64,000 nucleotides of DNA from an uncultured Gemmatimonadota bacterium (GCA_964571855.1 CAZNDO010000017.1:8393-72392); one strand, 5' to 3'; shown: positions 4,808-35,458, numbered from the stretch's first letter. Program-made: numbers and translations. The notes: generated by a model not told the origin, from the sequence alone.

Positions 4808-4896
4808 CCGTTTCCTGACGACACCATGACCTCCCGGTGGGGCGACCCGCCGCTCCCCGGGAGGACACTGGCCTCCCGCACTCCGCCGGAGGTCCC

Positions 4897-6624
4897 ATGA
4901 GCCTGCGCCCCGTCGCCTGCCTGATCCCGTCCGCCCTTCTCGCGGCCGCCGCCCCGGTCGCCGCCGCCACCTTCACGAAGGTCACGTCCGGCGTCGTGGT
5001 CCAGGACGCCTCCGAATCCACGGGCGGCGCCTGGGAGGACTTCGACGCGGACGGCGACCCCGACCTGTTCGTCTCCTGCGGCAACCTGGCGGCGGCGAAC
5101 AACCGGCTGTACCGGAACGACTTCGGCCTCTTCTTCGCGCTCGTCCCGGGCCCGGTGGCCGCGGACGGCACGCCGTCCATCGGCGGCGCGTGGGGCGACA
5201 TGGACGGCGACGGCGACCCCGACCTGCACGTGTCGAACCGGCAGGGCGTGGACAACCTCCTGTACCGCAACGACGGCGCGGGCGCCTTCGCCCCCGTCAC
5301 CACCGGCGGCCCCGTCACTTCCGGCGGGAACTCGAACTCCGCCTCCTGGGTGGACATCGACCTCGACGGCGACCTCGATCTCTTCGTGATCGAGTTCAAC
5401 GAGACGAACCACCACTGGCGCAACGACGGCGGCGTCTTCACGGCGGTCACCACCGGTCCGCACGTGACCGAGACCTCGTTCTCCATCAGCGGCGTGTGGA
5501 GCGACTACGACCGCGACGGCGACTCCGACCTGTACGTGGCGAACGGCGGCAACCAGCACAACGCCCTGTACCGCAACGACGGCGGCACGTTCGTGAACGT
5601 GACCGCCGCCGCCCAGCTCCAGCACGGCGGCAACACGATCGGCGCGAGCTGGGGCGACTGGGACAACGACGGCTGGTCCGACCTCCTCGCCGCCAACACG
5701 CTCGGGCAGAACGAGGTGCTGTACCGCAACCTCGGCGACGGCACGTTCGAGCGCATCCTGACCGGGCCCGTCGTCACCGCCGGCGGCAACTCCGTCGGCA
5801 GCGCGTTCGGGGACGTCGACAACGACGGCGACCTCGACCTCTTCGTAGGGAACGACGGCACGGACAACGCCCTCTTCCGCAACGACGGCGGCGGCGCATT
5901 CACACGGATCACCACCGGCGCGATCGTCACGGACGGCGGCCAGACCTTCGGCGTCTCCCTCGCCGACTGGAACTCCGACGGCTGGCTGGACGCCTTCGCG
6001 GCGAACCGGCTGGACGAGGACGACTTCCTGTACACGAACGACGGCGGCGCGAACCGGTGGCTGGAGGTGGCGCTGACCGGCACCGTGTCGAACCGCACGG
6101 GGATCGGCACGCGCGTGGAGGCGTACGCCACCATCGGCGGGGTCCCGGTGCGGCAGATGCGCGAGCGCCAGTCGCAGAGCGGCTACAACAGCGCGGCCGA
6201 CCCGCGGCTGCACTTCGGCCTCGGCGACGCGGCCACGGTGGACTCGCTGGTGGTGGCGTGGCCGTCCGGGCTCGTGGAGACGCTGCGCGACGTGGCGGTG
6301 GACCAGGTCCTCGCCCTCGTGGAGGGTGCCACCCTGACCGGCGCGCCGGAAGCGGCATCCGCTCCGCTCGGCGCCCTGCGCGTGGCGCCGAACCCCGCGC
6401 GCGGCGACGCCGCGATCCGCTGGTCCGCGCCGGGCGGCGACACGGTGGCCGTGCGCATCTTCGACCTGCGCGGCCGCCTCGTGCGTTCCCTCGCCCCGTC
6501 CGCGCACGAGGCGGTGTGGGACGGCCGCGACGACGCCGGCCGCGCGGTGGCCGCCGGCACGTACTTCGCGGTGGCGACCGGTCGCGAGCGCACCGGGATC
6601 GCGCGGATGACGCGGTTGCGCTGA
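4897..6624 (+). CDS. CRTAC1/ASPIC-UnbV family protein with FG-GAP/VCBS repeats and a C-terminal FlgD-Ig/T9SS-like domain
   Basis: GGAGG lies 5 nt upstream of the ATG at 4897, and the protein begins with a signal peptide, MSLRPVACLIPSALLAAAAPVAAA. Repeated DxDGDGDxDL motifs are present, the UnbV/ASPIC signature is NRTGIGTRVEAY, and the C-terminal domain reads PNPARGDAAIRW..VAVRIFDLRGRLVRSL..WDGRDDAGRAVAAGTYF. Confidence 0.8.
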   Translation: MSLRPVACLIPSALLAAAAPVAAATFTKVTSGVVVQDASESTGGAWEDFDADGDPDLFVSCGNLAAANNRLYRNDFGLFFALVPGPVAADGTPSIGGAWGDMDGDGDPDLHVSNRQGVDNLLYRNDGAGAFAPVTTGGPVTSGGNSNSASWVDIDLDGDLDLFVIEFNETNHHWRNDGGVFTAVTTGPHVTETSFSISGVWSDYDRDGDSDLYVANGGNQHNALYRNDGGTFVNVTAAAQLQHGGNTIGASWGDWDNDGWSDLLAANTLGQNEVLYRNLGDGTFERILTGPVVTAGGNSVGSAFGDVDNDGDLDLFVGNDGTDNALFRNDGGGAFTRITTGAIVTDGGQTFGVSLADWNSDGWLDAFAANRLDEDDFLYTNDGGANRWLEVALTGTVSNRTGIGTRVEAYATIGGVPVRQMRERQSQSGYNSAADPRLHFGLGDAATVDSLVVAWPSGLVETLRDVAVDQVLALVEGATLTGAPEAASAPLGALRVAPNPARGDAAIRWSAPGGDTVAVRIFDLRGRLVRSLAPSAHEAVWDGRDDAGRAVAAGTYFAVATGRERTGIARMTRLR

Positions 6625-6628
6625 GCGG

Positions 6629-7321
6629 TCAGCGGCGGAGGCGGTAGCCCAGCTTCCGCACGGTGAGGATGTGCCGCGGGCGGGCAGGGTCCTCCTCCAG
6701 CTTGCGGCGCAGCTCGCCCACGTGGGTGTCCACGGTGCGGGATTCCACCGTGGCGGGGTAGCCGAACACGCGCTCCAGCAGCTCGGTGCGGGACACGACG
6801 TTGCCGCGCCGGTCGTACAGCTCCAGCAGCAGCGCGAACTCCTTCGGCGTGAGCGCAACGGCGGCGCCGCGGGCGCGGACGCTGCGCGTGCCGCGGTTGA
6901 TCTCCACGGCGCCGAAGCGCTCCCACGCCTCCTCCGGGTCGGCGGCCGCGGGCGCGCCGCCGCCGCGGCGCAGCAGCGCCTGCACGCGCGCCAGCAGCTC
7001 GAGCAGGCTGAACGGCTTCGTGACGTAGTCGTCCGCGCCCCACTTCAGCCCGCGCACGCGGTCCATCTCCTCGCCGCGCGCGGTCAGCATCAGCACGGGC
7101 ACGGCGCAGCCGTCGGCGCGCAGCCGGCGCAGCACCTCGTAGCCGTCCGGCGCGGGGATCATGATGTCCAGGATGACGAGGGCGTAGCGGCCGGACCGGG
7201 CCTCGGTGAGCGCCGCCTCGCCGTCCGCGACCGCGTGCACCTCGTGCCCCTCGAACTCCAGGTTCGTGCGCAGGCCGTGCGCCAGCTCCGCGTTGTCCTC
7301 CACCACGAGGATCCGCGTCAT
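6629..7321 (-). CDS. OmpR/PhoB-family response regulator
   Basis: MTRILVVEDNAELAHGL is followed by a receiver domain and a winged-helix output domain (TVDTHVGELRRKL). Its start overlaps the stop of the kinase gene. Confidence 0.85.
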   Translation of the reverse strand: MTRILVVEDNAELAHGLRTNLEFEGHEVHAVADGEAALTEARSGRYALVILDIMIPAPDGYEVLRRLRADGCAVPVLMLTARGEEMDRVRGLKWGADDYVTKPFSLLELLARVQALLRRGGGAPAAADPEEAWERFGAVEINRGTRSVRARGAAVALTPKEFALLLELYDRRGNVVSRTELLERVFGYPATVESRTVDTHVGELRRKLEEDPARPRHILTVRKLGYRLRR

Positions 7322-9966: not shown

Positions 9967-10917
9967 ATGGCGAAGAAGATCATCGCCGTCGTGGGCGCCA
10001 CCGGCGCCCAGGGCGGAGGGCTCGTGCGCGCGATCCTCGCGGACCGGGACGGCGGGTTCGCCGTTCGCGCCCTCACGCGGAACCCGGGCTCGGACAAGGC
10101 GAAGGCCCTTTCCGCCGCCGGCGCCGAGGTCGTGGCCGCGGACCTGGACGATCCCGACAGCCTGAAGCGCGCCTTCCGCGGCGCGCACGGCGCGTTCTGC
10201 GTCACGAACTTCTGGGAGCACTTCTCCCCGGACAAGGAACTGGCGCAGGCGAAGAACATGGCGGATGCGGCGAAGGCGGAGAAGGTGGCGCACGTCATCT
10301 GGTCCACGCTGGAGGACACGCGCAAGCTCTCGCCGCTCACGGACGCGCACATCCCCACGCTGCACGGCAAGTACAAGGTCCCGCACTTCGACGCGAAGGG
10401 GGAGGCGGACGCGCACTTCGCGGCGTCGGGCGTGCCCACCACGTTCCTGCTCACGTCGTTCTACTGGGAGAACTTCGTCTTCTTCGGAATGAACCCGAAG
10501 CCGGACGCGGAAGGCACGCTGGTCTTCGCGCTGCCGATGGACGACGCGAAGCTCCCGGGCATCGCGGTCGAGGACATCGGGAAGTGCGCGTACGCCATCT
10601 TCCGGCAGGGGCCGTCCGGGTTCGCCGGGAAGTACGTGGGCATCGCCGGGGACCACGTGACGGGCAGCGAGATGGCGGCCGCCATGTCCAAGGCGTTCGG
10701 CCGCACGGTCCGCTGCAACGCGGTGCCGCCGGAGGTCTACCGCTCGTTCGGATTCCCGGGCGCGGACGATCTCGGCAACATGTTCCAGTACAAGCGGGAC
10801 TTCAACGCGCAGTTCACGGGCGCGCGCCGGCTGGAGGTGGCGCGCTCGCTGAACCCGGACATGCTCACGTTCGAGGCGTGGCTCGAGGCGAACAAGGACC
10901 GGATCCCGCGCGAGTAG
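9967..10917 (+). CDS. NmrA-family NAD(P)-binding protein
   Basis: MAKKIIAVVGATGAQGGG is a Rossmann GxxGxxG motif. The rest has an NmrA-like profile. Confidence 0.85.
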   Translation: MAKKIIAVVGATGAQGGGLVRAILADRDGGFAVRALTRNPGSDKAKALSAAGAEVVAADLDDPDSLKRAFRGAHGAFCVTNFWEHFSPDKELAQAKNMADAAKAEKVAHVIWSTLEDTRKLSPLTDAHIPTLHGKYKVPHFDAKGEADAHFAASGVPTTFLLTSFYWENFVFFGMNPKPDAEGTLVFALPMDDAKLPGIAVEDIGKCAYAIFRQGPSGFAGKYVGIAGDHVTGSEMAAAMSKAFGRTVRCNAVPPEVYRSFGFPGADDLGNMFQYKRDFNAQFTGARRLEVARSLNPDMLTFEAWLEANKDRIPRE

Positions 10918-10949
10918 CCGCCGCCGCGATCAGTCCAGACGCAGCGTCA

Positions 10950-10982
10950 GCTCCACGAGCCGCTCCCCCCGCCGCACGGTGA
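10950..10982 (+). terminator. GC-rich hairpin, stem CCGCTCCCCC/GGGGGAGCGG with a 13-nt loop, 33 nt downstream of the nmrA-like stop. There is no U-tract.
   Basis: The inverted repeat was read from the sequence. Confidence 0.3.
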
Positions 10983-11107
10983 GGGGGAGCGGCGTCCCGC
11001 GCAGCGCCTCCACGCGCGCGACGGTCTTGAATCCGGGCGGGCGTCACTGCAGAATCGGCACTCCCCCGCGACCGCTGCCACGGCATCCTGCTCCGTGGAG
11101 GCAGAAC

Positions 11108-11458
11108 ATGGATCGGCGCGAGTTCCTGGCGAAGGCGGGCGTGGTGGCCACGTGGGCCGCGGTGGCGGTGCGCGTGGGCGGTTGCGGCGACGACGGGGAC
11201 GGCAACCCCATGGACGGCGACGACGGGGACGTGACCGGGTCCGTCGCGAGCAGCTCCGGCCACACGCACGCGGTCTCCATCTCGGCGGCGCAGATCGACG
11301 CGGCGAACGCGGTCACCCTCACGCTGTCGAACTCGGCCGGGCACGTGCATGAGGTGTCGCTGACCGCGGATCAGGTCATGGACATCGGCGCCGGAGCGCG
11401 GGTGACCGCGGTCAGCACGAACGACAGCGGCCACACGCACGCGGTCACGTTCAACTGA
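11108..11458 (+). CDS. Tat-signal lipoprotein with three SGHxHxV repeats. It is a putative small metal-binding protein of unknown family.
   Basis: GGAGG lies upstream of the ATG. MDRREFLAKAGVV is a twin-arginine motif, and the lipobox is VGGC. The mature roughly 80-aa part contains SSGHTHAVS, SAGHVHEVS and SGHTHAVT. Confidence 0.6.
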   Translation: MDRREFLAKAGVVATWAAVAVRVGGCGDDGDGNPMDGDDGDVTGSVASSSGHTHAVSISAAQIDAANAVTLTLSNSAGHVHEVSLTADQVMDIGAGARVTAVSTNDSGHTHAVTFN

Positions 11459-13808
11459 CGTCGCGTCCGGCGCGCGCCACCTCGAACGTGATGCGACCGA
11501 GCTGCCGGCCGTCCACGACCTGATCGATCGCGAGCGGCGTCCAGTCGAAGGCCGATCCCGCCGGAACGGTCACGCGCACGAGGACCTCGGCGTCGTCGTC
11601 CGCGTCGAGCCGGAGACGCAGCGGCCGCCGGCGCAGCTCGCCGAGCGTCCACGTGCCGGACGCCCCGGCGAGCCGCGCGGCGTCCATGGCCACGTGCGCC
11701 CCGTCCGGCAGGCCCGACCCGAACCGCAGCTCGTGCTGCGCCGGTCCCTCGGGCATCCCGCGCAGCCGCATGCGGAAGCGCGCGTCCTCGCCCGGGACCG
11801 GCGCGCGCCGCTGCCGGCTGAGCATCCGCAGCCGCCCCGAACCCCGGAGGAAGGCGAGATATTCCTCCGTCGACGCCTCCGCGTGCGGGAGCCCGTTCCC
11901 CTCGGCCTCGTCCGCGATCCCCGCGATCCAGCTCAGCGGCCCGCCCGGGATGTCCGCGGGAAGCGACCACGGCTTCGAGACCTTCACGCCCCCGGAGGGG
12001 ACGCCGTCCACGGCCATGCGGCCAAGCGGCCGCCAGAACCGCGGGTGCAGGAACGGGGACGGCTCCGACCACCACAGCGCAACCTCCACGTCCTGGACCT
12101 CGGGCGTCCGGTTCCGCACGCGAACGCGCACGCTGCCCCCGGGCGACGCATCGGCGGGTGCGAACGCCTGGTGGCGCATCTCGGGATGGTCGAACGGTGG
12201 CGGCGGCGGACCCGGGCGCGGGACGAGGATGTCCGGGCAGAGGAACTTGTAGAAACGGTGGGCGCGATCGTTCAGTTCCGTCAGCTCGTCCATCAGGAGC
12301 ACGCGCGCCGCGGAAGGAAGCTCCAGCGCGGCCTTCGCAAGATCCGGCTGCGGGCCGATCCGATGCGTGGCCTCCTCCTCGTAGTACGGGTCCTCCGGGC
12401 GGAACGTCTGCGGCCAGCCGAAGTCCTCGTTCCGCAGGAGATCCCGCAGCGCCTGCGGCTCGGCGGGCGGACCCTCCGCCGCGCCGTCCACGCCGAGACG
12501 GCGTTTGTGCGCGGCCTGGAGCAGCGCCACCACTCCCCCGACGATGGCGGTGGCCGCGGACGTGGCCGAGAACCAGCGCGCCACCACCTCCGTGGCCGGG
12601 CAGCCCGGGTTCAGGACCGCCCCGCCCAGGCCCGGTTCCCGCGAGCACGCCGTGACCTCCGCGGACGCGGACGCGTGGCAGTCCACCCGGGGCCCGTAGT
12701 TCGTGCCGTGGATGGCCTGACCATCCGATTCGCGCCAGCGCACACGCGTGGCGCCGTCGTCCCCCAGGGTGCCCCCGCCCACGACGATGGCGCCGGAGTC
12801 GTCGGCGGACGGGTCCCAGTCGAAGTACTCGCCGTCCGGATCGACTCCCTTGAAGGAACCCCCCAGGCTGCCCAGGCCGTTCCCGGCCGGTTCCACCACG
12901 GCGATGCCGCGGCCGACGGCCACCTGGATGGCGCGGAAGACGTCCGGGTTGATCTCGACGGGGAACGACTTGGGCTCCCTCGACGTGGGCGCCATGCTCC
13001 ACTCGCCGGCCGCCGGGAGGAAGGCCTCGTGCTCGAGCACGAGCACGTCGCCCGCCACGAGCCCCTCGCCGGCGCCGGGCGTGTCGCCGAGCGCGCGGTC
13101 GATGGCCTCGCCCATGCTCGCCTCGTCCGGCACGGCGCTGAACGCAAGGCGCGCGCCGTACGCGATCCCGCGCGTCCCTTCCTCTCCGGACGACCCGAAC
13201 GGCCGCGCTCCGATCACGCCGAGCGCCGCCGTGCCGTGGCGGTACGCGGTCTCGCTGCTCCCGGCGGGCATCGCGGGCATCGCGGTGTCCGCCAGGAACT
13301 CCACGTGCTGCAGCGACTCGTGCGGATCGTACGCGGTGTCGCAGACGCACACGCGCACGCCGGCGCCGTCGGTCTCGCTCCACAAGGCGGCCGGGCCCAC
13401 GCCCACGGGCGATTCCGCGAGGTAGTCCTGCTGCGCCTGGTAGTCCGTCGCGACCGGCGAGCAAGGACGCGTGGGCAGCGCGAGCACGGCCTGCTCCACA
13501 TCCGATCGGGCCCGCAGCCGCGCCAGCAGGTCGCGCACGTCGTCCACGTCCGCGGGCAGCCGGACGCGGAGGAACCGATCCAGGCTGCGGCCACCCCCCG
13601 GACGAGCGAGCGGATGACCCTGCGCGATCAGGCGGCGCGCGAAGCGCGGGAAGCTCATGCGGGGCACGGCGCCCTGCGGGAGCAGCCGGGCGAAGCGCAC
13701 GAAGGGCGCCCCATCCTCCAGAAGCCCCTGGCCGCCCTGCTCCAGGACGGAGTCCCCCTCCGCGAGCTTCACGATCAGCTCGACCGGGATGCGGCGTGCG
13801 GGGCTCAC
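11451..13808 (-). CDS. S8 (subtilisin-like) serine peptidase with no signal peptide and a large C-terminal extension
   Basis: The catalytic triad context is VRVCVCDTAYD (Asp), YRHGTAALGVIG (His) and FSATSAATAIVGGVVAL (Ser). The N-terminal ELIVKLAEGD region is propeptide-like. The GTG start at 13808 overlaps the upstream stop (GTGA), which suggests translational coupling. Confidence 0.75.
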   Translation of the reverse strand: MSPARRIPVELIVKLAEGDSVLEQGGQGLLEDGAPFVRFARLLPQGAVPRMSFPRFARRLIAQGHPLARPGGGRSLDRFLRVRLPADVDDVRDLLARLRARSDVEQAVLALPTRPCSPVATDYQAQQDYLAESPVGVGPAALWSETDGAGVRVCVCDTAYDPHESLQHVEFLADTAMPAMPAGSSETAYRHGTAALGVIGARPFGSSGEEGTRGIAYGARLAFSAVPDEASMGEAIDRALGDTPGAGEGLVAGDVLVLEHEAFLPAAGEWSMAPTSREPKSFPVEINPDVFRAIQVAVGRGIAVVEPAGNGLGSLGGSFKGVDPDGEYFDWDPSADDSGAIVVGGGTLGDDGATRVRWRESDGQAIHGTNYGPRVDCHASASAEVTACSREPGLGGAVLNPGCPATEVVARWFSATSAATAIVGGVVALLQAAHKRRLGVDGAAEGPPAEPQALRDLLRNEDFGWPQTFRPEDPYYEEEATHRIGPQPDLAKAALELPSAARVLLMDELTELNDRAHRFYKFLCPDILVPRPGPPPPPFDHPEMRHQAFAPADASPGGSVRVRVRNRTPEVQDVEVALWWSEPSPFLHPRFWRPLGRMAVDGVPSGGVKVSKPWSLPADIPGGPLSWIAGIADEAEGNGLPHAEASTEEYLAFLRGSGRLRMLSRQRRAPVPGEDARFRMRLRGMPEGPAQHELRFGSGLPDGAHVAMDAARLAGASGTWTLGELRRRPLRLRLDADDDAEVLVRVTVPAGSAFDWTPLAIDQVVDGRQLGRITFEVARAGRDVS

Positions 13809-14653
13809 GGGTACCACCAGGGCGGTTCCTGCGTCTTGCCCTCGGTGCTGCCGCCCTCGGGCTTCGCGGAGACGACCACGCGCGTGACCGCGGGGATCGA
13901 CACGCGGTCGAACCGGTCCTTCGAGTGGTCGCCGTCCGTGCTCTCCACGAGTTCCCACGCCTGGACCTCGAACGCGTCCCCGAACCAGAACTCGAACTTC
14001 TTGTCGGTCCGGTACAGCCCGTCGGTCCCGGGCGCCTGCGTCGACTTCGCCGTGAACCCGCCCGGTCCTTGCCAGTACGAGATCACCGCACGCACGCGCT
14101 CCATGTCCGGGTGGAGCTGCCGTCCGCGCTTGCAGACGTCCGAGACCTCCCCGGGACCGACCACGGCATCGGAGCCGCCGCAACCGTCGGCGACCTTCCT
14201 GTTGGGGAACAGCCAGAACGCCTCGTCCGGATCCAGCGGCGTCGGCGACTTCGCCAGGTCCTTCCAGCTCCCCACGATGTTGATCCAGACGAAGGGATCG
14301 CCGTCCGCCAGCCGGCTGGAGTAGACGACGGCGCCCGTGGCGTCGTACAGGGCGAGGCTGTCGAGCACGTAGTCCACGTCGGGGAAGTTCCCCACCTGCA
14401 CGAGGAACCCCGTCCAGAAGTAGGACGAGTCCTCCGACACCGTCCCCGCGTGATGGAAGCGGTTGTTGGTGGGGGCCCAGGTGGCCGCGTCCACGTGCTC
14501 GAGCACGAGGTTCGCGGCGCCGGTCGTCGTCGGCGCGGGCTCCCCCGTCACCGGAGTGACGGGCGACGGGCGCCAGGGCCATCGCCACAGGACGATGACG
14601 AGCACGATGATCAGGATCGGACAGAACCAACGGCAGAACCAGCGTCCGCTCAT
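13805..14653 (-). CDS. Hypothetical single-pass membrane protein of 282 aa with an aromatic-rich extracytoplasmic domain
   Basis: A strong SD GGGAGGAAG lies before the ATG at 14653. The protein starts MSGRWFCRWFCPILIIVLVIVLWRW, which is a TM helix. No family was recognised. Its stop overlaps the S8 start. Confidence 0.6.
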   Translation of the reverse strand: MSGRWFCRWFCPILIIVLVIVLWRWPWRPSPVTPVTGEPAPTTTGAANLVLEHVDAATWAPTNNRFHHAGTVSEDSSYFWTGFLVQVGNFPDVDYVLDSLALYDATGAVVYSSRLADGDPFVWINIVGSWKDLAKSPTPLDPDEAFWLFPNRKVADGCGGSDAVVGPGEVSDVCKRGRQLHPDMERVRAVISYWQGPGGFTAKSTQAPGTDGLYRTDKKFEFWFGDAFEVQAWELVESTDGDHSKDRFDRVSIPAVTRVVVSAKPEGGSTEGKTQEPPWWYP

Positions 14654-14669
14654 CGCTTCCTCCCGCGAC

Positions 14670-17645
14670 TCACTGCCAGTCGCCCACGGCCACGAACGGA
14701 CCCCAAGTATAGGGGTGCGCGTGCCCGGATTTCGACCTCTGCTTCGCGAGCATCTCCCGCGAGGCCTCCCGCACCGCCTGTGCCGTCGCGAGCCCGCGCG
14801 ACCAGTGCGCGTCGTACACGTGTTGCATCCAGTCGCGCGTGGCCTCGTCATCCACGTCCCAGAGGCTCAGCAGGAGCGTGTGGACGCCGGCCAGCTCGAA
14901 CGCGCGGCGCAGCCCCAGCACGCCCTCGCCGCGCCGGATCTCCCCGAGCCCGGTGTCGCACGCGGAGAGCACGGCCCACCGCGTTCCGGCGAGGTCCGAC
15001 GTGGCGATTTCCTCCGCGGTCAGCACCCCGTCGTCCGGACCCTCCCGTCCGTTCGCGCCGGCAAGGGCCAGGCCGGACAGCGGCCACCGCCGGCCGCCGC
15101 CGGCCGGCGTGCGCACGACCGCCCCGATCCCGCGCGTGCCGGGCCGCGCCGCGTCCGGGGCGCCGTCCAGGAAGAAGCCGTGCGTGGCCAGGTGCACCAC
15201 CTCGCGGCCCTTCGCCCGCGCGATCACCGCGGACTCCGTGGCCTCGACACCGGCGAGAACCACCGGGGCGCCGAGTTCCGCCGCGGGCCAGGCGGCGCGC
15301 AGCGCGCGCACCTCCTCGCGCGTGCCGGGGAGCGGCTCGAAGCGCGGCAGGCGGCCGGCCGGGCGCGTGCCTTCGCCGTACGCCACATCCCCCACGAAGA
15401 GCGCGCCGTTCACGGGACGATCCGGCCACGGCCGCAGGAGATCGCGCTCCGCCGAGAGCTGGTGGAAGCACGGGCCCGTCTCCACCAGCCACGCATCCCC
15501 CGCGGCCGGGAGCGCCGCGAAGTTCACGAGGTGCAGCGAGCCGTCCGGCACGAGGATCACGGTGTCCGCGCCCGACACGCGCGGCGCCACCTTGTCCCAC
15601 ACGCTCGCCCGCAACGCGGCGCCGGCCGCGCGACATGCGCGCGCCGCCTCGGGGCCCGCGTCCGCCGCCCCGCGCTCGACGGACGCGCGCCACGCCGCCA
15701 CGGCCGCGTCCACGCGGGCCGCGTCGTCGAGGTCCACGAGCTGCGGCCTCGCGCCCGCGGTGGCCACCCATGCCGCGTACCGTGCCGGCGCCCGCCCGTC
15801 GGCGCGGAGACGGACGAACGCCACCAGACCCGCGCGCGGCGGGATGGCCGCCAGCGCGGCGTCGCCGCCGATCTCCGGTCCGCTCCCGGACCCGGCCGCC
15901 CGGCGGGCGATCGCCCGTTCCGCGCGGTCGCGCCGCTCCACGGCGGCGTCGATCCGCGCGCGATGCGCGGCCTCGGCCACTCCCTCTCCGGGTCCCGCGA
16001 CCAGCCGCTGGGCGAGCTCGCGGCTCGCGGCGCGCAGCTCCCGCAGCAGCCCGGGATCGGACGCCGCCGCGCGCCGGCGACGCAGCGTGTCCAGCACGAG
16101 CGCGCGCGAGCGAACGAGGGCGTCGAAGACGCGCGCGTCCGCCGCGGGATCGGGGCGCGCGCCCAGGCGGAACCGGTGCGCCTGATCCAGCCCGCCGCCG
16201 CGGACGTCCGCGAAGCGGACCGCTTCCCCCTCGGGCAGGAGATCGATGGTCAGCTCGGCGTGCGCGCGCGCGACGGTCTCGGACCGCAGCGCCGCCGCCA
16301 GCGCCGCCGCGTCGTTCCCCGCGCCCGCCTCCGCGCGGGCGATCGCCTCGCACGCCTCGGCCACCCGGGGATTCGCCGGTCCCACGGTCCGCTCGAAGAT
16401 CCCGAGCGCCTCGGTGGCCGCCGCGCGGGCCTTCCCGAACCGCGCCGCCTCCGTCTCCGCGCGCGCCAGTTGCAGGAGGGCGCTGCCCAGGAACACGCTC
16501 TGCGTGCCGCGCCGGCGGATCTCCACGAGACGCGTCAGCTCGCGGACCGCCAGGTCCACCTGGCCGCGTTCCAGGTCCACCTGCCCCAGCCGCTCGAGGG
16601 ACGCGGTGGTCTGCACGTGCTGCTCGCCCAGCCTCGCCTTGCGCACCGCGAGGGTCCGCTCGAGGAGGGCGCGCGCCTCGTCGGCGCGCCCCGCCGCGAG
16701 CAGCACGTCCGCCAGGTTCATGCGCGTCGACGCCACGGTCAGCCCGTCCTCGCCCTCCTCCTCGATCTGCGCGGCGCACACCTCGCGCAGGATCTCCTCC
16801 GCGCGCTCGTGCCGGCCGAGCGCGGACTGCACCAGGGCGAGGTTGTTGCGGCACGAGAGCGCGAGCGGATCGCCGGGGGGAAGGGACGCCAGCGCGGCCT
16901 CGTACTCGTCGCGCGCGGCGGCGTACTCGTCCAGCTGGAGCAGCGTTCCGGCGAGCCCGTTGTGCGCCCACGCCACGAGCGGATGCTGCGGCGCGGCGTT
17001 CCCCAGGACCTCGAGGCACTTCGCGTACACCTCGCGCGCCCGCTCGAAGTCGGCGCCCTCGCCGATGAGCCGCCCGTAGTTGTACAGCGTCTTCGCGTAC
17101 GTCACCGGATCGCCCGCCGCGTCGATCGGCAGCACGCGCTCGAAGACCGCGGACGCCTCCTCCAGGAGGTCGCGGTCCACGTACAGGTTCGCGAGGATCT
17201 TGAACGACAGGGCGCGCGCCGCCTCGGGCGAGCCGGCCACGTCGTGCAGCGCCACGGCGCGCTCCGCCTCGCGACGCGCGGACTCGAAGTCCCCGGCGCG
17301 GTGGTAGGCCTGGGCGAGGCGGCTCGTGGCGGTGGCGGCGCGGGTGCGATCGCCGGTGGCCGCGGTGCGGCGCGCGAGCTGCAGCGCGAGGTCCACGGCG
17401 TCCTCGCCGCCGCCCTTCACGGCGATGTCCACCATCTCCTGCAGGACCTCCAGCGCGAACTCCTCGTCCCCGCCCGCACCGGCGCGACTCCACAGCGCGC
17501 GCGCCCGGTCGCGGGCCTCCGCGAGCTGCCCGCCCCGGTGCAGCGACCGCACGGCGTCCAGCTCCGCGCGCGCGGCGTCGTCCACGGCGGGCGCCGGCGC
17601 GGCCGCGAGGGCCAGGAGGAGCACGAGCGCGAGGTTGCGCATCAC
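14670..17645 (-). CDS. Secreted TPR-repeat protein with a C-terminal CHAT (caspase-like) protease domain
   Basis: The signal peptide is MMRNLALVLLLALAAAPAPA and about 400 aa of TPR-like repeats follow. The CHAT His/Cys dyad sits in VVHLATHGFF and AVLSACDTGLGE. The start is 3 nt after the upstream kinase stop. Confidence 0.8.
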   Translation of the reverse strand: MMRNLALVLLLALAAAPAPAVDDAARAELDAVRSLHRGGQLAEARDRARALWSRAGAGGDEEFALEVLQEMVDIAVKGGGEDAVDLALQLARRTAATGDRTRAATATSRLAQAYHRAGDFESARREAERAVALHDVAGSPEAARALSFKILANLYVDRDLLEEASAVFERVLPIDAAGDPVTYAKTLYNYGRLIGEGADFERAREVYAKCLEVLGNAAPQHPLVAWAHNGLAGTLLQLDEYAAARDEYEAALASLPPGDPLALSCRNNLALVQSALGRHERAEEILREVCAAQIEEEGEDGLTVASTRMNLADVLLAAGRADEARALLERTLAVRKARLGEQHVQTTASLERLGQVDLERGQVDLAVRELTRLVEIRRRGTQSVFLGSALLQLARAETEAARFGKARAAATEALGIFERTVGPANPRVAEACEAIARAEAGAGNDAAALAAALRSETVARAHAELTIDLLPEGEAVRFADVRGGGLDQAHRFRLGARPDPAADARVFDALVRSRALVLDTLRRRRAAASDPGLLRELRAASRELAQRLVAGPGEGVAEAAHRARIDAAVERRDRAERAIARRAAGSGSGPEIGGDAALAAIPPRAGLVAFVRLRADGRAPARYAAWVATAGARPQLVDLDDAARVDAAVAAWRASVERGAADAGPEAARACRAAGAALRASVWDKVAPRVSGADTVILVPDGSLHLVNFAALPAAGDAWLVETGPCFHQLSAERDLLRPWPDRPVNGALFVGDVAYGEGTRPAGRLPRFEPLPGTREEVRALRAAWPAAELGAPVVLAGVEATESAVIARAKGREVVHLATHGFFLDGAPDAARPGTRGIGAVVRTPAGGGRRWPLSGLALAGANGREGPDDGVLTAEEIATSDLAGTRWAVLSACDTGLGEIRRGEGVLGLRRAFELAGVHTLLLSLWDVDDEATRDWMQHVYDAHWSRGLATAQAVREASREMLAKQRSKSGHAHPYTWGPFVAVGDWQ

Positions 17646-17648
17646 GCC

Positions 17649-19355
17649 TCAGGGAACGGGGTTGTCCAGCTCCACGCGCCAGGTCCACGGGCCGTCGCGA
17701 TCCGACGCATCGCGGATCCGCTCGAACACGCGCTCCAGGGGAGTGGCCGCGCGCACCGGCTCCCCACCCGTCCCCTTCACGACCCCGCCGATGCCGCGCA
17801 CCCTGCGCGCCACCTGCTCCAGATCCGCGGGCGTGACCTCCACCGGGACACCGGCCGCGGCCTCCGGCACGTCCGCGATCGCCGCCTCCAGCGACTCCAG
17901 CCGCTCCGTGGACGCGATCACGTACACGCGCTCGCGGCCGCCCGCGCTCGTGACCGCCCAGCTGGCCGCCGCGCCGTCCAGGCGGCCGGGCAGGCGGTGC
18001 GTCGCGCCGGCGGGAAGCGGGTTGTGCGCATCGGTCCCGCTCAGCGGGAACAGGAGGTGCACCTGCCCGGCATCGTCCTCGTTCAGCACGTACGCCCACA
18101 CGTCCCGGCTGCCGCGCAGATCCAGGTTCAGCAGGTCCCCGGGACGGACGGATCCGCCGCTGGCCAGCTCGGCCGTCCCGGCGTCGCGCGTGCGCAGGAG
18201 CGCCGCGGTGACGTCGAGCGGCGGCGGCGCAAGGGAGCGCCACACGAGCACGCCGGTCAGCACCGCCGCCGCGCCGATCGCGACCGGCGCCGCCCAGCGA
18301 CGCGCGAGCGAGCGCACGGGCGACACGCCGACGGACGCCGCGAGCGACCGCTCCATCTCGCCCGCGCTCCGGTACCGCTCCGCCGGGTCCCGCGCGAGGG
18401 CGCGCTCCACCACGGCCACGAACGCGGCCGGCGCGTCGGGCCGCGCGTCCCGCAGCGGCGTGAACTCGCCGCGGCGGTGACGGTCGCGCAGCTCGCGCGG
18501 CGACGTGGCATCCACCGGGTACCTCCCGGACACCAGCCGGTACAGCAGCACGCCCACCGCGTACAGGTCCGCGGCGGTGGCGCCCCGCTCGCCTTCGAAC
18601 ACCTCGGGCGCCAGGTACCGCGACGTACCCACGAACGCCTCGTGGTCCGGCAGCGACTCCACGCGGCGCGCGTCCACGGTGGTGCTGAAGTCCATGAGCA
18701 CGATGCGCCCGCCCTCCTCGCGCATCACGTTCGCGGCCTTCACGTCGCGATGCACGAGTCCGGCCGCGTGGACGGCAGCGAGCGCCTTCAGGACTTCCAC
18801 CCCGATCGCCACCGCCTCACGCGGACCGAACGTGCCGCGCTCCTCGAGGCACTGCTCGAGGGTGCGCCCCTGCACGAGCTCCATCCAGATCCCGACACGC
18901 CCGTCGCGGACGCGCGCGCCGTGCACCACCACCACGTTCGGATGCCGGATGCGCGCGAGCCCCTGCGCCTCGCGGAGCAGCGCCTGCGGGTCCGTGCCGC
19001 AGGTGCCCTTGAGGATCTTCAGCGCGACGTCCTTCTTCAGGTCCGGGTCGCGGGCGCGGTACACCTCGCCGCAGCCGCCGTGGCCGATGCGGTCCAGGAT
19101 CTCGAGCGAGCCCCACGCGCGCAGGCGTTCGCCGGATCCTCCCTCGTCCGCGCGGGCCGGGGTGGCCGCGGGCTGCATGCGCTCCGTGGAGTCGAAGCCC
19201 AGCGGATCGCGCTGGATGGCGCCGAGCCGCTCGAGGACGCGCAGGTTCGCGATGAGCCGGCCGTCGTCCGTGTCGTCGATCTCCGCGTTCCAGTCCACGG
19301 GTTGCGCGTCCGCCACGGCGCCGGCGATGCGCTCCAGGCGATCCGGTGCCATCAT
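17649..19355 (-). CDS. Transmembrane Ser/Thr protein kinase with an extracytoplasmic DUF4384-like C-terminal domain
   Basis: The gene starts ATGATG at 19355, overlapping the sigma-factor stop. It carries GHGGCGEVYRA, VALKIL, HRDVKAANVM, DFSTT and GTSRYLAPE. A TM helix WAAPVAIGAAAVLTGVLVW separates the kinase from a roughly 270-aa C-terminal domain. Confidence 0.8.
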   Translation of the reverse strand: MMAPDRLERIAGAVADAQPVDWNAEIDDTDDGRLIANLRVLERLGAIQRDPLGFDSTERMQPAATPARADEGGSGERLRAWGSLEILDRIGHGGCGEVYRARDPDLKKDVALKILKGTCGTDPQALLREAQGLARIRHPNVVVVHGARVRDGRVGIWMELVQGRTLEQCLEERGTFGPREAVAIGVEVLKALAAVHAAGLVHRDVKAANVMREEGGRIVLMDFSTTVDARRVESLPDHEAFVGTSRYLAPEVFEGERGATAADLYAVGVLLYRLVSGRYPVDATSPRELRDRHRRGEFTPLRDARPDAPAAFVAVVERALARDPAERYRSAGEMERSLAASVGVSPVRSLARRWAAPVAIGAAAVLTGVLVWRSLAPPPLDVTAALLRTRDAGTAELASGGSVRPGDLLNLDLRGSRDVWAYVLNEDDAGQVHLLFPLSGTDAHNPLPAGATHRLPGRLDGAAASWAVTSAGGRERVYVIASTERLESLEAAIADVPEAAAGVPVEVTPADLEQVARRVRGIGGVVKGTGGEPVRAATPLERVFERIRDASDRDGPWTWRVELDNPVP

Positions 19356-19915
19356 GACCCCTCCCCGTCGTTCATCTCCGCGGCCAGCGTGACCAGGCCG
19401 CGCGTGACCAGCATGCGCGCCGCGTCCGGCGACGGGAGGCCCAGCGCCTCGGCGAGCTGCGCGTACGCGTAGCCCATCTCCAGGCGCAGGACCACCGCCT
19501 CGCGCTGCGCGGCGGTCAGCTTCTCCAGGGCGCGCTCGTAGCGCTCCAGCATCTCCGCGCGGATCACGCGCTCCAGGGGCGAGAGCTGCGGGGAGGCGTG
19601 CTCGTCGGACAGCGGCGCGGACTCGGGCTGCCGGCGCGTGCGGCGCACGTGGTCGCGGATCTGGTTCAGCACGGCGCGACGCAGGTAGACGAGCAGGGCG
19701 CCCTCGTGCCGGGACTCGAACGCCGGCAGGTGGCGCAGGGAGCGCACCAGCGTGTTCTGCACGAGGTCGTCCGTGTCCACGAGGTCGCGCGCGGCCGCGG
19801 GGAGGCGGCCGGTGGCCCAGCGCTGGAGCATGGGCACCATGCGCCGGAGCAGCCGCTCGCGCGCGGCGTCGTCGCCGTCGCGGATGAGTTCCAGCAGGCT
19901 GGCCGTGGACTCCAT
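19352..19915 (-). CDS. ECF-type sigma-70 family RNA polymerase sigma factor
   Basis: The protein starts MESTASLLELIRDGDDAARERLL. Region 2 reads DDLVQNTLVRSLRHLPAFE and region 4 reads AQREAVVLRLEMGYAYAQLAEALGLP. Its stop overlaps the kinase start. Confidence 0.8.
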   Translation of the reverse strand: MESTASLLELIRDGDDAARERLLRRMVPMLQRWATGRLPAAARDLVDTDDLVQNTLVRSLRHLPAFESRHEGALLVYLRRAVLNQIRDHVRRTRRQPESAPLSDEHASPQLSPLERVIRAEMLERYERALEKLTAAQREAVVLRLEMGYAYAQLAEALGLPSPDAARMLVTRGLVTLAAEMNDGEGS

Positions 19916-20049
19916 CCCGCTCCTCGCGTCCGGCCTGGACAGGGGACGACCGGTGTGCGGCGGCGACCCTGGGGGGCTGGCCGCCGGTGCAGCGTGGAGA
20001 TCCGGGACCGAGGGTAGCGCCCAAAGCCGGAGCGCCGCAACCATCCGCG

Positions 20050-21762
20050 ATGCCATGGGTTTCGTCCTCCCTGCCCGACCCAACGCCATCCGTCCGGGAA
20101 CCGAACGCCGCGGGGGACGTCCGGAGGGTGCACGTTGCGGCCCCGGAACATCCGGGGCACACTCGACGCCCTTGCGCCCGGTCCCCGGCGCCCGAGGAGC
20201 CCGTGAGCAGCCAGCCGTCCGACACCCGAGCCGAACGCGTCCGCCGTGCCCGCGCGAGCGACGTCACCAGTTCCGGCGTCCTCGGCGACGCCGCGGCCAG
20301 CCTGCGCCTGGCGTGCTTCGTCTGGATCGGGCTCTGGGGCTTCGGCCTCTTCATGAACCTCGTGGTGGGGCCGCTCATCTCCCCAGGACAGCCCATGGAC
20401 GACGCCTGGCCCTGGCCGGCGGCGCCCGTGGCCTTCGCCCTGATCGCGGTCTCCGCCGGCCTGGTGGCGCTCACGCGCGAGAGGAACCTCCCCTCCACCC
20501 AGCTCCTGGATCTGGCGCTCGGCTACGAGGTGCTGCTGGCGTTCGGGATCGGGCTCGTGAACCAGTGGACGCCGAACACGGTGGGGCTGTCCTGGATCTG
20601 CGTGATGATCCTGGTGCACCCGCTCATCGTGCCGGCCACCACGGGGCGCGCGTTCCTGGCCGGCGTGATCGCGGCGAGCATGGATCCCGTGGGGCTGGCC
20701 ATCACGGCGGCGCGCGGCGTGGAGGTGCCGCCGGTGTCCACCATCGTGTGGACGTACCTGCCGAACTACATCTGCGCGGTGCTGGCAGTGCTGCCGGCGC
20801 GCGTGCGCTACCGTCTGGAGCAGAGCCGCCAGGTGGAGAGGGAGCTCGGCAGCTACCGCCTGGGCGAACTCATCGGCAAGGGCGGCATGGGCGAGGTGTA
20901 CCGCGCGGAGCACCGCATGCTGGCGCGGCCGGCCGCGGTGAAGCTGGTGCGGCCGGAGCTGCTGGGCGCGTCGGACCTGTCGCGGCGGCAGCGACTGGCC
21001 GCGCGCTTCGAGCGCGAGGCGCAGGTGACCGCGAAGCTCCGCTCGCCGCACACCGTGAGCGTGTACGACTACGGCATCACGGACGACGGCACGTTCTACT
21101 ACGTGATGGAACTGCTGGAAGGCGTGACGCTGGAGACGCTGGTGCAGGAGTACGGCCCGGCGCCGGCGGCGCGCGCCGTGCACATCCTGGCGCAGGTCTG
21201 CGACTCGCTCGCCGAGGCGCACGAGGCGGGACTGGTGCACCGCGACATCAAGCCCGCGAACGTGTACCTGTGCCGGTACGGCCGGCGCGCGGACTTCGTG
21301 AAGGTGCTGGACTTCGGCCTGGCGAAGCCGATGGACCGCGACGACGACACCGCGAGCACGGCGGGCGCGTCCATCACGCAGGGCTTCGCGCTGGCCGGGA
21401 CCCCCGCGTTCATGGCGCCGGAGCAGGCCATGGGCGGCGAGATGGGTCCCTACACGGACATCTACGCCGTGGGCTGCGTGGCGTACTGGCTCCTGACCGG
21501 ACAGCTCGTGTTCGGCGGGCGCAGCGCCATGGAGATCATCGCGCACCATGCGAAGGACCGCGCGCCGGCGCCGTCGGCGGCCACCGAGCTGGAGGTGCCG
21601 GCGGCGCTGGATGACGTGATCATGCAGTGCCTGGAGAAGGACCCGGCGAAGCGCCCGCGCAGCGCGGAGGAGCTGGCCCGCTGCCTGCGGGCGGCGTGTC
21701 CGGAGGAGTGGGGCCGGGAGCGGGCGTGGCGGTGGTGGGAGCGGCACCGGCCGGAGGCTTGA
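20050..21762 (+). CDS. Ser/Thr protein kinase with a polytopic N-terminal membrane domain
   Basis: Five or six TM helices precede GKGGMGEVYRAEH, HRDIKPANVYL, DFGLAKP and GTPAFMAPE. It is divergent from the ECF sigma gene across 134 bp. Confidence 0.8.
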   Translation: MPWVSSSLPDPTPSVREPNAAGDVRRVHVAAPEHPGHTRRPCARSPAPEEPVSSQPSDTRAERVRRARASDVTSSGVLGDAAASLRLACFVWIGLWGFGLFMNLVVGPLISPGQPMDDAWPWPAAPVAFALIAVSAGLVALTRERNLPSTQLLDLALGYEVLLAFGIGLVNQWTPNTVGLSWICVMILVHPLIVPATTGRAFLAGVIAASMDPVGLAITAARGVEVPPVSTIVWTYLPNYICAVLAVLPARVRYRLEQSRQVERELGSYRLGELIGKGGMGEVYRAEHRMLARPAAVKLVRPELLGASDLSRRQRLAARFEREAQVTAKLRSPHTVSVYDYGITDDGTFYYVMELLEGVTLETLVQEYGPAPAARAVHILAQVCDSLAEAHEAGLVHRDIKPANVYLCRYGRRADFVKVLDFGLAKPMDRDDDTASTAGASITQGFALAGTPAFMAPEQAMGGEMGPYTDIYAVGCVAYWLLTGQLVFGGRSAMEIIAHHAKDRAPAPSAATELEVPAALDDVIMQCLEKDPAKRPRSAEELARCLRAACPEEWGRERAWRWWERHRPEA

Positions 21763-21780
21763 CACCCGACCGGCCGGTCG

Positions 21781-21812
21781 GCTACTTTGTCCACCAAGCG
21801 AACAAAGTCCGT
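21781..21812. promoter_or_regulatory. Inverted-repeat operator ACTTTGTCCAC-N3-GCGAACAAAGT, 10 bp upstream of the lipoprotein gene. It is site A of a motif that recurs three times.
   Basis: Read directly. The same half-site GCGAACAAAGT / ACTTTGTTCGC recurs at 34581-34603 and 39101-39129. Confidence 0.45.
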
Positions 21813-21821
21813 TCCGGAGGA

Positions 21822-23180
21822 ATGCCCATGATGCCGAGCGGCCGATCGGGCTGGGCCGTGGCGGCGGCCCTGGCCGCCTTCGGGGCGACCGGCTGCGAGC
21901 GCGACACCGGCGGCCTGGGCCCGGCCCCCGTGGACACCGACCCCGCGGTCTTCCTCGACGACTTCGCGGACGGCGTCATCTTCCAGCCGTTCCTCGACAC
22001 GAAGGTGGACGTGGCCGCCCGCGATCTCGAGCAGCGGCAGCGCGGCACGGCTTCCCTTCGGATCACCGTCCCCGGTCCGGGAGACGACACCGGACTCTAC
22101 GCCGGAGGCGCCTTCACCGCGGAGCAGGAGCGCGATCTCACGTCCTACAACGCGCTCACCTTCTGGGCGAAGGGCAGCCGGACGGCCACCCTGGACGTGG
22201 CCGGGCTGGGGAACGACAACACGGGCACATCCCGCTACACGGCCACCCGCTCCGCCATCCCCTTGACCACGGAGTGGACGAAGATCGTCCTCCCCGTCCC
22301 GCTGCCGGATCGGCACGGGCTGGAGCGCGGGCTGTTCTTTTTCGCCGAGGGGTTCGAGCAGGACCAGGGCTACACGCTGTGGTTCGACGAGGTGCAGTTC
22401 GAGAACCTCGCCGCGGTGACGAACCCGCGGCCCACGCTCCTCCCCGCCACGCGCTCCGTGTTCGTGGGCCAGACGGTGGCCATGCAGGACACGCGCACGA
22501 CGTTCGCCGTGGACGGCTCCGACGTGACCGTGTTCCACACGCCCTCCTACTTCACGTTCCTCTCGTCGGACGAGAGCGTGGCGCAGGTCGTGGGCGACGA
22601 GGTGCGCATCGTGGGCGGGGGAACCGCCATCATCACCGCGCGGCTCGGTGACGTCGTCGCGGGCGGCCGCGTGACGCTGAACTCCTCCGCGCCGCCGCCG
22701 GACACCGCGCCCACGCCCGCCGTCCCCGCCGCCGACGTGATCTCGCTGTTCAGCAACGCGTACGTCGATCGCCCGGTGGACACGTGGTCCACGTCCTGGG
22801 ACACGGCCGACGTCACCGATCTCTCGATCGCGGGCGACGACCTCAAGGCCTACACGGGGCTCGGGTTCGCCGGCATCGAGTTCGCCACGCCCACGATCGA
22901 CGCGTCGGCGATGACCCACTTCCACGTGGACGTCTGGGCGCCGGACGGCTTCTTCATCAAGCTCAAGCTCGTGGACTTCGGCGCGGACGGCCGCTTCGGG
23001 GGCGGCAACGACACGGAGTCCGCGGAGATCGGTTTCCTGATTGCCAACGGGGAGTGGGTCGGGTTCGATATCCCCCTGAGCAGCTTCACCGGTCTCGGGG
23101 CGCGGGCGCACCTCGCGCAGTGGATCCTGCTGGGGAACCCGAGCGTCCTGTACGTGGACAACGTCTACTTCCACAGGTGA
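21822..23180 (+). CDS. Surface lipoprotein with two beta-sandwich (CBM-like) modules flanking a Big_2 domain. It is a putative glycan-binding protein.
   Basis: GGAGG lies upstream of the ATG. The protein starts MPMMPSGRSGWAVAAALAAFGATGC, with the lipobox Cys. The Big_2-like segment is SSDESVAQVVGDEVRIVGGGTAIITARLGDVVAG. Confidence 0.65.
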   Translation: MPMMPSGRSGWAVAAALAAFGATGCERDTGGLGPAPVDTDPAVFLDDFADGVIFQPFLDTKVDVAARDLEQRQRGTASLRITVPGPGDDTGLYAGGAFTAEQERDLTSYNALTFWAKGSRTATLDVAGLGNDNTGTSRYTATRSAIPLTTEWTKIVLPVPLPDRHGLERGLFFFAEGFEQDQGYTLWFDEVQFENLAAVTNPRPTLLPATRSVFVGQTVAMQDTRTTFAVDGSDVTVFHTPSYFTFLSSDESVAQVVGDEVRIVGGGTAIITARLGDVVAGGRVTLNSSAPPPDTAPTPAVPAADVISLFSNAYVDRPVDTWSTSWDTADVTDLSIAGDDLKAYTGLGFAGIEFATPTIDASAMTHFHVDVWAPDGFFIKLKLVDFGADGRFGGGNDTESAEIGFLIANGEWVGFDIPLSSFTGLGARAHLAQWILLGNPSVLYVDNVYFHR

Positions 23181-35372: not shown

Positions 35373-35458
35373 ACGTCCCGACGACGGCGGTCCGGGCCCC
35401 CGCAGCGGGGCCCGGCCGCGACGGGATCCCGATCGTGCGGACGAAGGAGCGAGACGAG

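Follow-up and report, generated by a model that had tools for sequence, protein, structure and literature searches.

A stretch of DNA of 64,000 nucleotides (nt) from an uncultured Gemmatimonadota bacterium (GCA_964571855.1 CAZNDO010000017.1:8393-72392; hereafter the window) carries, on its minus strand at positions 11451-19915, five closely packed genes. They code for a sigma factor of the extracytoplasmic function (ECF) type, a membrane-spanning Hanks-type Ser/Thr kinase, a secreted protein that combines tetratricopeptide repeats (TPR) with a caspase-like CHAT protease domain, a small anchored protein of an unannotated family, and a subtilase of family S8. This five-gene set probably represents an undescribed signalling unit that links proteolysis outside the membrane to gene control, and the five genes can be regarded with high confidence as one functional unit. 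An earlier note on this DNA, prepared from the sequence alone, had stated that such an arrangement was not a described module; a full-text literature search led to the same conclusion, as it returned DdvA, Craspase, ECF43 and reviews of ECF sigma factors, none of which describes the five-gene set. The components and part of their logic have precedents. New are the strict association of five genes, the occurrence of a separate, exported TPR-CHAT protein with a DUF4384-carrying kinase, and the unannotated new-fold family. The genes and the parts of their products are as follows.

19352-19915, minus strand: ECF-type sigma factor, 187 amino acids (aa).
17649-19355, minus strand: Hanks-type Ser/Thr kinase, 568 aa, with the kinase domain at 18372-19103, a transmembrane helix at 18228-18299 and an outside DUF4384 domain at 17904-18149 (Pfam, hydropathy).
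14670-17642, minus strand: TPR-CHAT protein, 990 aa, with a signal-peptide-like N-terminus at about 17583-17642, a TPR region and the CHAT domain at 14679-15626.
13805-14653, minus strand: anchored protein of an unannotated family, 282 aa, with a transmembrane anchor at 14570-14650, a beta-rich domain and a disordered C-terminal PPW tail at 13808-13825.
11451-13808 or 11451-13817, minus strand: S8 subtilase, 785 or 788 aa, with a prodomain-like N-terminus (ELIVKL), the catalytic domain at 12432-13367 and a C-terminal tandem beta-sandwich extension at 11454-12341.

The GC content is 70-75% across the window, and because shadow frames fill the lists of open reading frames (ORFs) at this composition, the real frames were identified by their codon-position GC. 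Five consecutive minus-strand frames between 11451 and 19915 exhibit a third-position GC of 0.93-0.98 and a second-position GC near 0.5, and together with a reading of the junctions this bears out the five packed genes that had been proposed. The stop codon of the sigma factor gene overlaps the kinase ATG (ATGA; TCATGATG), an overlap that recurs in two related lineages (L007 and L030). The kinase and CHAT genes are separated by 3-6 nt (TGA GGC GTG ATG), in keeping with the 3 nt given previously, and 16 nt, including GGGAGGAAG, lie between the CHAT gene and the gene of the 282-aa protein. The latter runs into the S8 gene with a GTGA overlap (CCGTGAGC), which extends to 13 nt when the S8 start is placed at GTG 13817. 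The overlaps at both ends and the 16-nt spacing are all as the earlier note had described them. In public contigs identical to the window, gene callers give the same five limits, with the S8 start at 13817.

Co-inheritance was followed by fetching the loci of members of the 282-aa protein family across the whole similarity range and analysing them with gene tables, tblastn and hmmsearch (lineages sampled: the window, L001, L004, L007, L008-11, L015, L016, L017, L018/19, L020, L030, L031, L032 and L033/34). Synteny of the CHAT, 282-aa and S8 genes in relatives, the lack of which had been named beforehand as refuting the proposal, held in all of the approximately 13 independent lineages: a TPR-CHAT gene is located directly upstream of the family gene in each of them, and an S8 gene of the same subfamily directly downstream wherever the contig continues (cut by a stop in L016). 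The pair of sigma factor and DUF4384 kinase is linked in six of the seven lineages with visible flanks. In five of these, namely the window, L007 (the lineage of the metagenome-assembled genome (MAG) Gemmatimonadota bacterium DHS20C21), L030 (represented by a contig of 6.45 Mb), L031 and L034, its place is immediately upstream of the CHAT gene; in L018 the order is permuted, and the pair is found immediately downstream of the S8 gene. The same gene order is kept in distant relatives, with 25-47% identity for the 282-aa protein and 25-68% for the five genes in at least six lineages; the C-terminus of the CHAT protein is 33-97% identical to that of the window in the sampled lineages. Flanking genes are unrelated between loci and of metabolic or housekeeping type. 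A scan of species-representative genomes with an S8 alignment yielded one true module locus, in a Gemmatimonadota MAG, while the eight other matches were unrelated S8 genes with no partners. More distant S8 relatives without a 282-aa gene have no CHAT, sigma or kinase neighbours either, and the closest stand-alone CHAT homologue (P0129) is located outside any module. The hosts of the module are mostly uncultured Gemmatimonadota-like bacteria.

Interrupted genes were noted at some of the related loci. In L031 (7052-9937) the CHAT gene is called in two pieces on a low-coverage contig (ctg311515_4x_l), and in L034 the kinase and S8 genes are each called in two pieces (5177-6842 and 10902-13798); these splits are probably frameshift errors, real pseudogenisation being the alternative. 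In L016 (2062-2785) the S8 gene starts normally, with a lipobox and EIIVELKD, shows a stop after the first approximately 70 codons and is followed by transposase-type ORF-like sequence, which may reflect an insertion or an assembly break.

All profile-based assignments of the earlier note (sigma factor, kinase with DUF4384, CHAT and S8) were upheld by Pfam. The sigma factor matches Sigma70_r2 (8.5e-9), Sigma70_r4_2 (2.3e-7) and Sigma70_ECF (7.5e-9) above the Pfam cutoffs and the NCBIfam superfamily model sigma70-ECF with 61 bits (cutoff 42.9), and is by these matches classified among the ECF (group 4) sigma-70 factors. Orthologues in the same module are 43-68% identical, and the six module sigma factors form a clear orthologous set with a common RWA[ST]GRLP motif and the region 2.2 pattern D-T-x-D-x-V-Q. 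The linker that joins sigma-2 to sigma-4 contains Ser-Pro in five of the six and Thr-Pro in the sixth (L030). No anti-sigma domain was detected by Pfam in any of the five products, and a Hanks-type kinase gene is located next to the sigma gene without an anti-sigma gene, which corresponds to the arrangement of ECF43-type pairs. That ECF sigma/kinase pairs constitute a known class, as the earlier note had stated, agrees with the literature (PMC7826278), and direct phosphorylation of ECF sigma factors by adjacent Hanks kinases has been described for EcfP/PknT and EcfK/PknS (PMC13147305; PMC7826278). The ECF43 pairs EcfP-PknT of Vibrio parahaemolyticus and EcfK-PknS of Xanthomonas citri, together with groups ECF59-62, 217, 267 and 283, are the nearest sigma/kinase pairs: in these, too, the sigma gene overlaps that of a following single-pass Ser/Thr kinase with a variable outside sensor, and an anti-sigma gene is missing. 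However, in members of ECF43 the acidic DxxD of region 2.2 is replaced by uncharged residues and a conserved Thr (QTTA-like; PMC13147305), whereas region 2.2 of the window sigma factor reads D-T-D-D-L-V-Q and D-T-x-D is kept in all six module sigma factors. On this region 2.2 criterion, membership in ECF43 was rejected. The module further differs from the ECF/kinase groups in that three envelope proteins are inherited along with the pair, an association that the literature examined does not report for those groups.

The kinase matches Pkinase (3.2e-41, residues 85-328) and DUF4384 (7.9e-13, residues 403-484), and hydropathy places a single transmembrane segment at residues 353-376, between the two domains; the layout proposed previously, with a cytoplasmic kinase domain, one transmembrane helix and an outside DUF4384, is thereby borne out. 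The DUF4384 domain, the only domain of the kinase on the outside, has a conserved C-terminal strand. Residues 1-84 form a conserved, cytoplasmic N-terminal segment for which no Pfam match was obtained even at E 1. By its catalytic motifs (VALK, LVHRDVKAAN, MDFS and LAPE) the protein is assigned to the Hanks-type Ser/Thr kinases; VALK, HRD, DF[G/S] and APE are kept in all five kinases checked (window, L007, L030, L031 and L018), with DFG in two orthologues. A cytoplasmic anti-sigma domain N-terminal to the transmembrane segment, as in class I or zinc anti-sigma factors of the DdvA type, is found in neither the kinase nor the CHAT protein.

The third product matches CHAT (PF12770, 1.5e-53) at residues 673-988, over 289 of 289 profile positions, as well as TPR_12 (1.8e-34). 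Its N-terminus is hydrophobic (MRNLALVLLLALAAAPAPA; hydropathy), and signal peptides were present on the CHAT proteins of every lineage checked. A His (HLATHGFF, THG) and a Cys (LSACDT, SAC) form a dyad that is kept in five of five module CHAT proteins checked, and on this sequence basis the protein is classified as a CHAT/caspase-fold (clan CD) peptidase. Its PDB sequence matches at E 0.01 or better are all TPR proteins, with no DdvA chain among them.

The 282-aa protein had been labelled a membrane protein, a label that requires correction: the better description is an extracytoplasmic protein that is held by an N-terminal anchor and whose fold is new or has gone unrecognised, not an integral membrane protein. 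In most family members the N-terminal hydrophobic segment ends in a lipobox-like Cys, and the window protein has a plain transmembrane anchor. Two cysteines, C158 and C174, are nearly invariant in the family and are lost together in two members, as expected of a covarying pair; the alignment further exhibits a TYWQG motif and an invariant C-terminal Q-x-P-P-W tail. The AlphaFold model is confident (pLDDT 84) and matches no PDB fold, and searches of Pfam, NCBIfam and PADLOC gave no match. A word-indexed search of 5.8 billion proteins identified only four close relatives, and a profile built from these four recovered, among 1.84 billion cluster representatives, 116 proteins at E up to 1e-3, 59 of them below 1e-10 (each representing a cluster at about 50% identity). 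Most family members are 200-310 aa in length, and a few are shorter and fragment-like. A pattern scan of 185,579 species-representative genomes, based on a 14-sequence alignment, gave 11 matches, approximately the hand-estimated chance number and none of them confirmed; the family is essentially absent from these representatives. In L008-L011 (e.g., L010 114-902 and 961-1809) a diverged second copy of the family gene is found between the CHAT gene and an orthologue 93% identical to the window protein. This copy is 262 aa long, 47% identical, and its N-terminus resembles a signal peptide rather than an anchor. The family protein of L007 lacks both conserved cysteines.

The fifth product matches Peptidase_S8 (PF00082, 2e-8) at residues 148-459. 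The catalytic Asp (VCVCDTAY), His (H191, HGT) and Ser (S417, ATSAAT) occur in this order with the oxyanion Asn (N310, AGNG), by which the protein is assigned to subtilase family S8, and they are kept in seven of eight orthologues. Residues 1-140 have a predicted strand-helix pattern and an ELIVKL start that resemble a prodomain, at low model confidence and with no Pfam match, including Inhibitor_I9, at E 1. The C-terminal extension, previously given as roughly 350 aa, measures approximately 290-300 aa. It gave no Pfam match at E up to 1 and is the only confident part of an otherwise poor S8 model, where it resembles tandem beta-sandwiches such as the transglutaminase C-terminal barrels and RbmA. 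A fusion of the 282-aa protein with the subtilase by frameshifting or readthrough was considered, as the S8 frame is open across the upstream gene, and was rejected because this stretch codes in the other frame (codon-position GC) and because relative frames and gaps differ between lineages.

The subtilase had further been described as cytoplasmic and without a signal peptide. The second part stands: hydropathy reveals no N-terminal hydrophobic segment, and of the alternative starts neither the GTG at 13817 (MVPVSPARR) nor those further upstream, which lie in a shadow frame, supply a signal peptide. The first part is unsafe, because the orthologues of six lineages (L016, L017, L018, L020, L032 and L033), about half of those available, carry lipobox or Sec-type signals, and because PopC, another subtilase that lacks a signal peptide, occurs in the periplasm and is secreted (PMC6434023). 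A signal-less S8 with the conserved extension of approximately 290 aa is found in the window, L001, L004, L007, L030 and L031. L015 has a signal-less N-terminus as well, on a contig that ends before the C-terminus; here a lipobox-type family protein stands alongside it, and the type of anchor in the family therefore does not simply covary with the S8 signal. In L018 and L020 the complete, aligned S8 proteins lack the extension and contain a prodomain insert of approximately 220 aa, also present in L017, and the S8 of L033 is longer and differently built. On these sequence features, the ancestral compartment of the CHAT/282-aa/S8 triad is taken to be the envelope.

These components suggest a module in which proteolysis in the envelope is coupled to an ECF sigma factor under kinase control, with a logic akin to that of DdvA/DdvS and of Craspase-Csx30-RpoE. 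The model is a tentative one, its wiring as set out here being given slightly less than an even chance. The analysis shows which genes are present and co-inherited, which domains they encode, and that catalytic residues and export signals are in place; every protein-protein step of the model is proposed on that footing. The two proteases and the anchored protein would constitute a proteolytic sensing device in the periplasm. The invariant disordered PPW tail of the anchored protein is a likely ligand of the TPR array of the CHAT protein, for which the anchored protein would then be a tether, an adaptor or a substrate. The subtilase, whose gene comes directly after, would either process the anchored protein or be inhibited by it. 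The output of proteolysis would act on the DUF4384 ectodomain of the kinase, which would then phosphorylate the sigma factor as in known ECF/kinase pairs and thereby activate a regulon to which the operon itself probably belongs. A protease cascade with sigma feedback, as the earlier note had envisaged, is thus plausible. TPR arrays classically bind C-terminal peptides, and it is because of this precedent and those of DdvA and Csx29/Csx30 that the periplasmic device is proposed to be read by DUF4384 and relayed to the sigma factor by phosphorylation.

In Myxococcus xanthus, the anti-sigma factor DdvA of the DdvS/DdvA pair carries a periplasmic TPR-CHAT (PMC11506125), an example of such a domain doing the sensing in ECF sigma control. 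As in the window, an ECF sigma factor is combined with a trans-membrane system that has a periplasmic TPR-CHAT and an intact His-Cys dyad. In the window, however, the TPR-CHAT is a separate secreted protein with a signal peptide only and the membrane-spanning partner is a kinase where DdvA has a zinc anti-sigma domain; the set is extended by a subtilase and a new-fold protein, and no CBASS or CRISPR regulon is found nearby. In the type III-E Craspase system (Csx29, Csx30, Csx31 and RpoE), the TPR-CHAT protease Csx29 cleaves Csx30 within its C-terminal domain and Csx30 binds an ECF sigma factor; in some variants of Csx30 the C-terminal domain is a DUF4384, which frequently occurs in fusions with proteases (bioRxiv 10.1101/2022.08.17.504292). 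The ingredients TPR-CHAT protease, ECF sigma factor and DUF4384 are shared with the window. Craspase is cytoplasmic and RNA-guided, whereas the CHAT protein of the window is exported and DUF4384 is placed outside on the kinase. Neither the Cas7-11/gRAMP and array nor the cytoplasmic TPR-CHAT of type III-E Craspase is present: the window contains no CRISPR array, and no cas gene, including Cas7-11, occurs among the neighbouring genes scanned with Pfam. A more specific and unlikely version of the proposed module would make it a trans-envelope counterpart of Craspase-Csx30-RpoE, in which the TPR-CHAT protein, docked on the PPW tail and primed or restrained by the subtilase, cleaves the DUF4384 ectodomain and so irreversibly switches a sigma-phosphorylating kinase. 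If this were true, DUF4384 would be a general caspase-substrate or receiver domain, and regulated proteolysis would constitute a new way of gating bacterial kinases.

Several observations weigh against the proposed wiring. The sigma factor keeps the DxxD that is lost in ECF43, and the best-understood mechanism of activation by phosphorylation may therefore not apply to it. In the S8 protein of the L007 lineage (P0009, L007 10001-12466) Gly replaces the catalytic Asp and no Pfam S8 match is obtained; the protein is a possible pseudoprotease, the rest of the L007 module being intact. Judged by their N-termini, the signal-less S8 proteins of the window and six further lineages may reside in a different compartment from their partners. 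Finally, in L020 alone the triad is bordered on either side by genes of the opposite strand and no sigma-kinase pair is close by, so that the triad can function without sigma factor and kinase.

The main alternative is that the module is a regulated secreted-protease cassette, a reading favoured by L020, where the triad stands alone. The triad would then be a payload for envelope or extracellular degradation, maturation or predation, the anchored protein an inhibitor or a chaperone, transcribed along with the proteases to protect the producing cell, and the sigma-kinase pair merely a switch for an unrelated, DUF4384-sensed signal. Precedents exist for a small lipoprotein gene directly upstream of a co-transcribed envelope peptidase gene. 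In Tannerella, genes of potempins, which are lipoproteins, lie directly upstream of those of the KLIKK peptidases that they inhibit, including the subtilisin-type mirolase (PMC9890683), which is among the PDB sequence matches of the S8 profile; the Treponema dentilisin operon (PrcB-PrcA-PrtP) combines an S8 lipoprotein with accessory lipoproteins (PMC8167434). Secreted hydrolases are moreover abundant in the window and in related loci. However, there is no likeness in sequence or fold, and these systems lack CHAT, kinase and sigma partners: the 282-aa protein has no structural likeness to any PDB entry, and no potempin is among the matches listed in its PDB fold comparison. The linkage of sigma factor and kinase in six of seven lineages and in two gene orders is tighter than is usual for a mere regulator, and DUF4384 is independently associated with caspase-fold proteases. 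The cassette is on balance rather unlikely.

A different role for the subtilase is suggested by PopC of M. xanthus, a signal-less subtilase of 50.8 kDa that reaches the periplasm and the medium, is restrained by PopD, a product of the same operon, and produces the p17 signal by cutting p25 at the surface (PMC6434023). By analogy with PopC/CsgA, the window subtilase, perhaps exported in a regulated manner although it has no signal peptide, might cleave the anchored 282-aa protein, and either the fragment set free or the one left behind would be a signal to the kinase ectodomain, on the same cell or on one next to it. The translational coupling of the S8 start to the end of the 282-aa gene and the invariant C-terminal tail of the family would fit such a surface-signal generator, and the window S8 resembles PopC in being subtilisin-like, signal-less and provided with an operon partner, a likeness drawn from descriptions only. 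The description of PopC in PMC6434023, however, mentions no C-terminal beta-sandwich extension, and no CHAT, kinase or sigma genes at its locus. The scheme leaves the invariably linked CHAT protease without a role, half of the orthologous S8 proteins are ordinary lipoproteins, and a signal generator of this kind is accordingly considered improbable.

The earlier note had placed the genes in the context of conflict and programmed-death systems. In a system of this kind, CHAT and S8 would be executioners under the control of kinase and sigma factor. CHAT/caspase-fold proteases and Ser/Thr kinases are indeed frequent in defence, where TPR-CHAT and ECF sigma factors are linked in DdvA/DdvS and in Craspase, and the kinase domain matches kinase models of PADLOC. 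These matches in PADLOC-DB v2 are to generic kinase domains only, and the sigma factor, CHAT, 282-aa and S8 proteins gave none, on which result a defence system was rejected. The missing CRISPR array, the lack of cas genes among the neighbours scanned with Pfam, and visible flanks of metabolic or housekeeping type instead of defence islands, point in the same direction, and an exported CHAT protein with an anchored partner fits an intracellular executioner poorly. The framing was therefore not upheld, and an anti-phage or programmed-death system is judged improbable. A chance run of same-strand genes, conceivable in a genome of 73% GC, at which starts and stops often overlap and long shadow ORFs abound, is hardly credible given that the five genes recur in at least six lineages, and the triad in approximately 13, amid unrelated flanks.

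Outside the coding regions, a candidate promoter is found upstream of the sigma gene.

20011-20040, minus strand: candidate promoter, TTGCGG, N18, TACCCT, with GGCGC just before the second hexamer.

Similar elements are located 106-149 nt upstream of several orthologous sigma genes, as judged by eye and regular expression without statistics. The candidate in L007 has the same layout (GGTTGCAA, N18, TAGCCT), the site in L030 consists of the second part only (GGCGCTAGACT) and that in L018 of TACAAT. A scan of the operon gave one promoter-like site (0.1 expected) and one terminator-like site (1.0 expected). The only sigma-70-like match within the operon (14706-14735, minus strand; TCGAAA, N18, TATACT) falls within the CHAT gene, at its 3' end and upstream of the 282-aa gene; the last two genes may have an internal promoter here, or the match may be due to chance.

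Further Ser/Thr kinase genes are located at 20050 (or 20203)-21762 on the plus strand and at 1-1777 on the minus strand. The first had been pointed out previously as being transcribed divergently from a shared region of 134 bp. The divergent orientation was confirmed, and the distance is 134 bp if the gene starts at 20050 and 287 bp if it starts at 20203, as gene callers have it; a conserved partner of the module it is not. Its product has an N-terminal region of approximately 220-290 aa without a Pfam match, and it is followed by a gene for a protein of 450-494 aa (21696-23180), likewise without a Pfam match; neither is kept beside the module in other lineages. On the other side, an ORF of 116-159 aa (10979-11458, plus strand) without a Pfam match runs towards the S8 gene, with an overlap of 8 nt at the 3' end of the latter. 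Other small ORFs of convergent orientation, also with no Pfam match, are found in the same position in L001 (117 aa), L007 (138 aa), L031 (190 aa) and L033 (247 aa), the likeness being one of position only.

Elsewhere in the window, five large secreted-type proteins end in FlgD_ig (4837-6624, 35435-36889, 36981-39104, 41415-43841 and 46947-48974), their other domains being FG-GAP/UnbV_ASPIC, CBM_4_9, GH16 with SdrD_B, Reg_prop and PD40. FlgD_ig resembles a C-terminal tag, common to these proteins, for sorting or anchoring, and proteins with this domain also flank the module in L030 and L020. A gene at 62214-63986 (minus strand) codes for a strong Schlafen group 3 DNA/RNA helicase domain (PF09848, 8e-85).

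The inputs sensed by the kinases of ECF sigma/kinase pairs are largely unknown in the field, and TPR-CHAT proteins have been tied to ECF sigma control twice before, in DdvA, which has no known natural trigger, and in Craspase. The module unites the kinase-ECF and TPR-CHAT-ECF themes in one compact unit and adds a new-fold family and a subtilase. The unannotated family, with its approximately 116 clusters, could receive a family definition from its strict gene context. As the known hosts are uncultured Gemmatimonadota-like bacteria, practical follow-up will need heterologous reconstitution. The module offers a five-protein system in which to study the route from an extracytoplasmic caspase-like protease to a kinase and a sigma factor, as well as the function of DUF4384.

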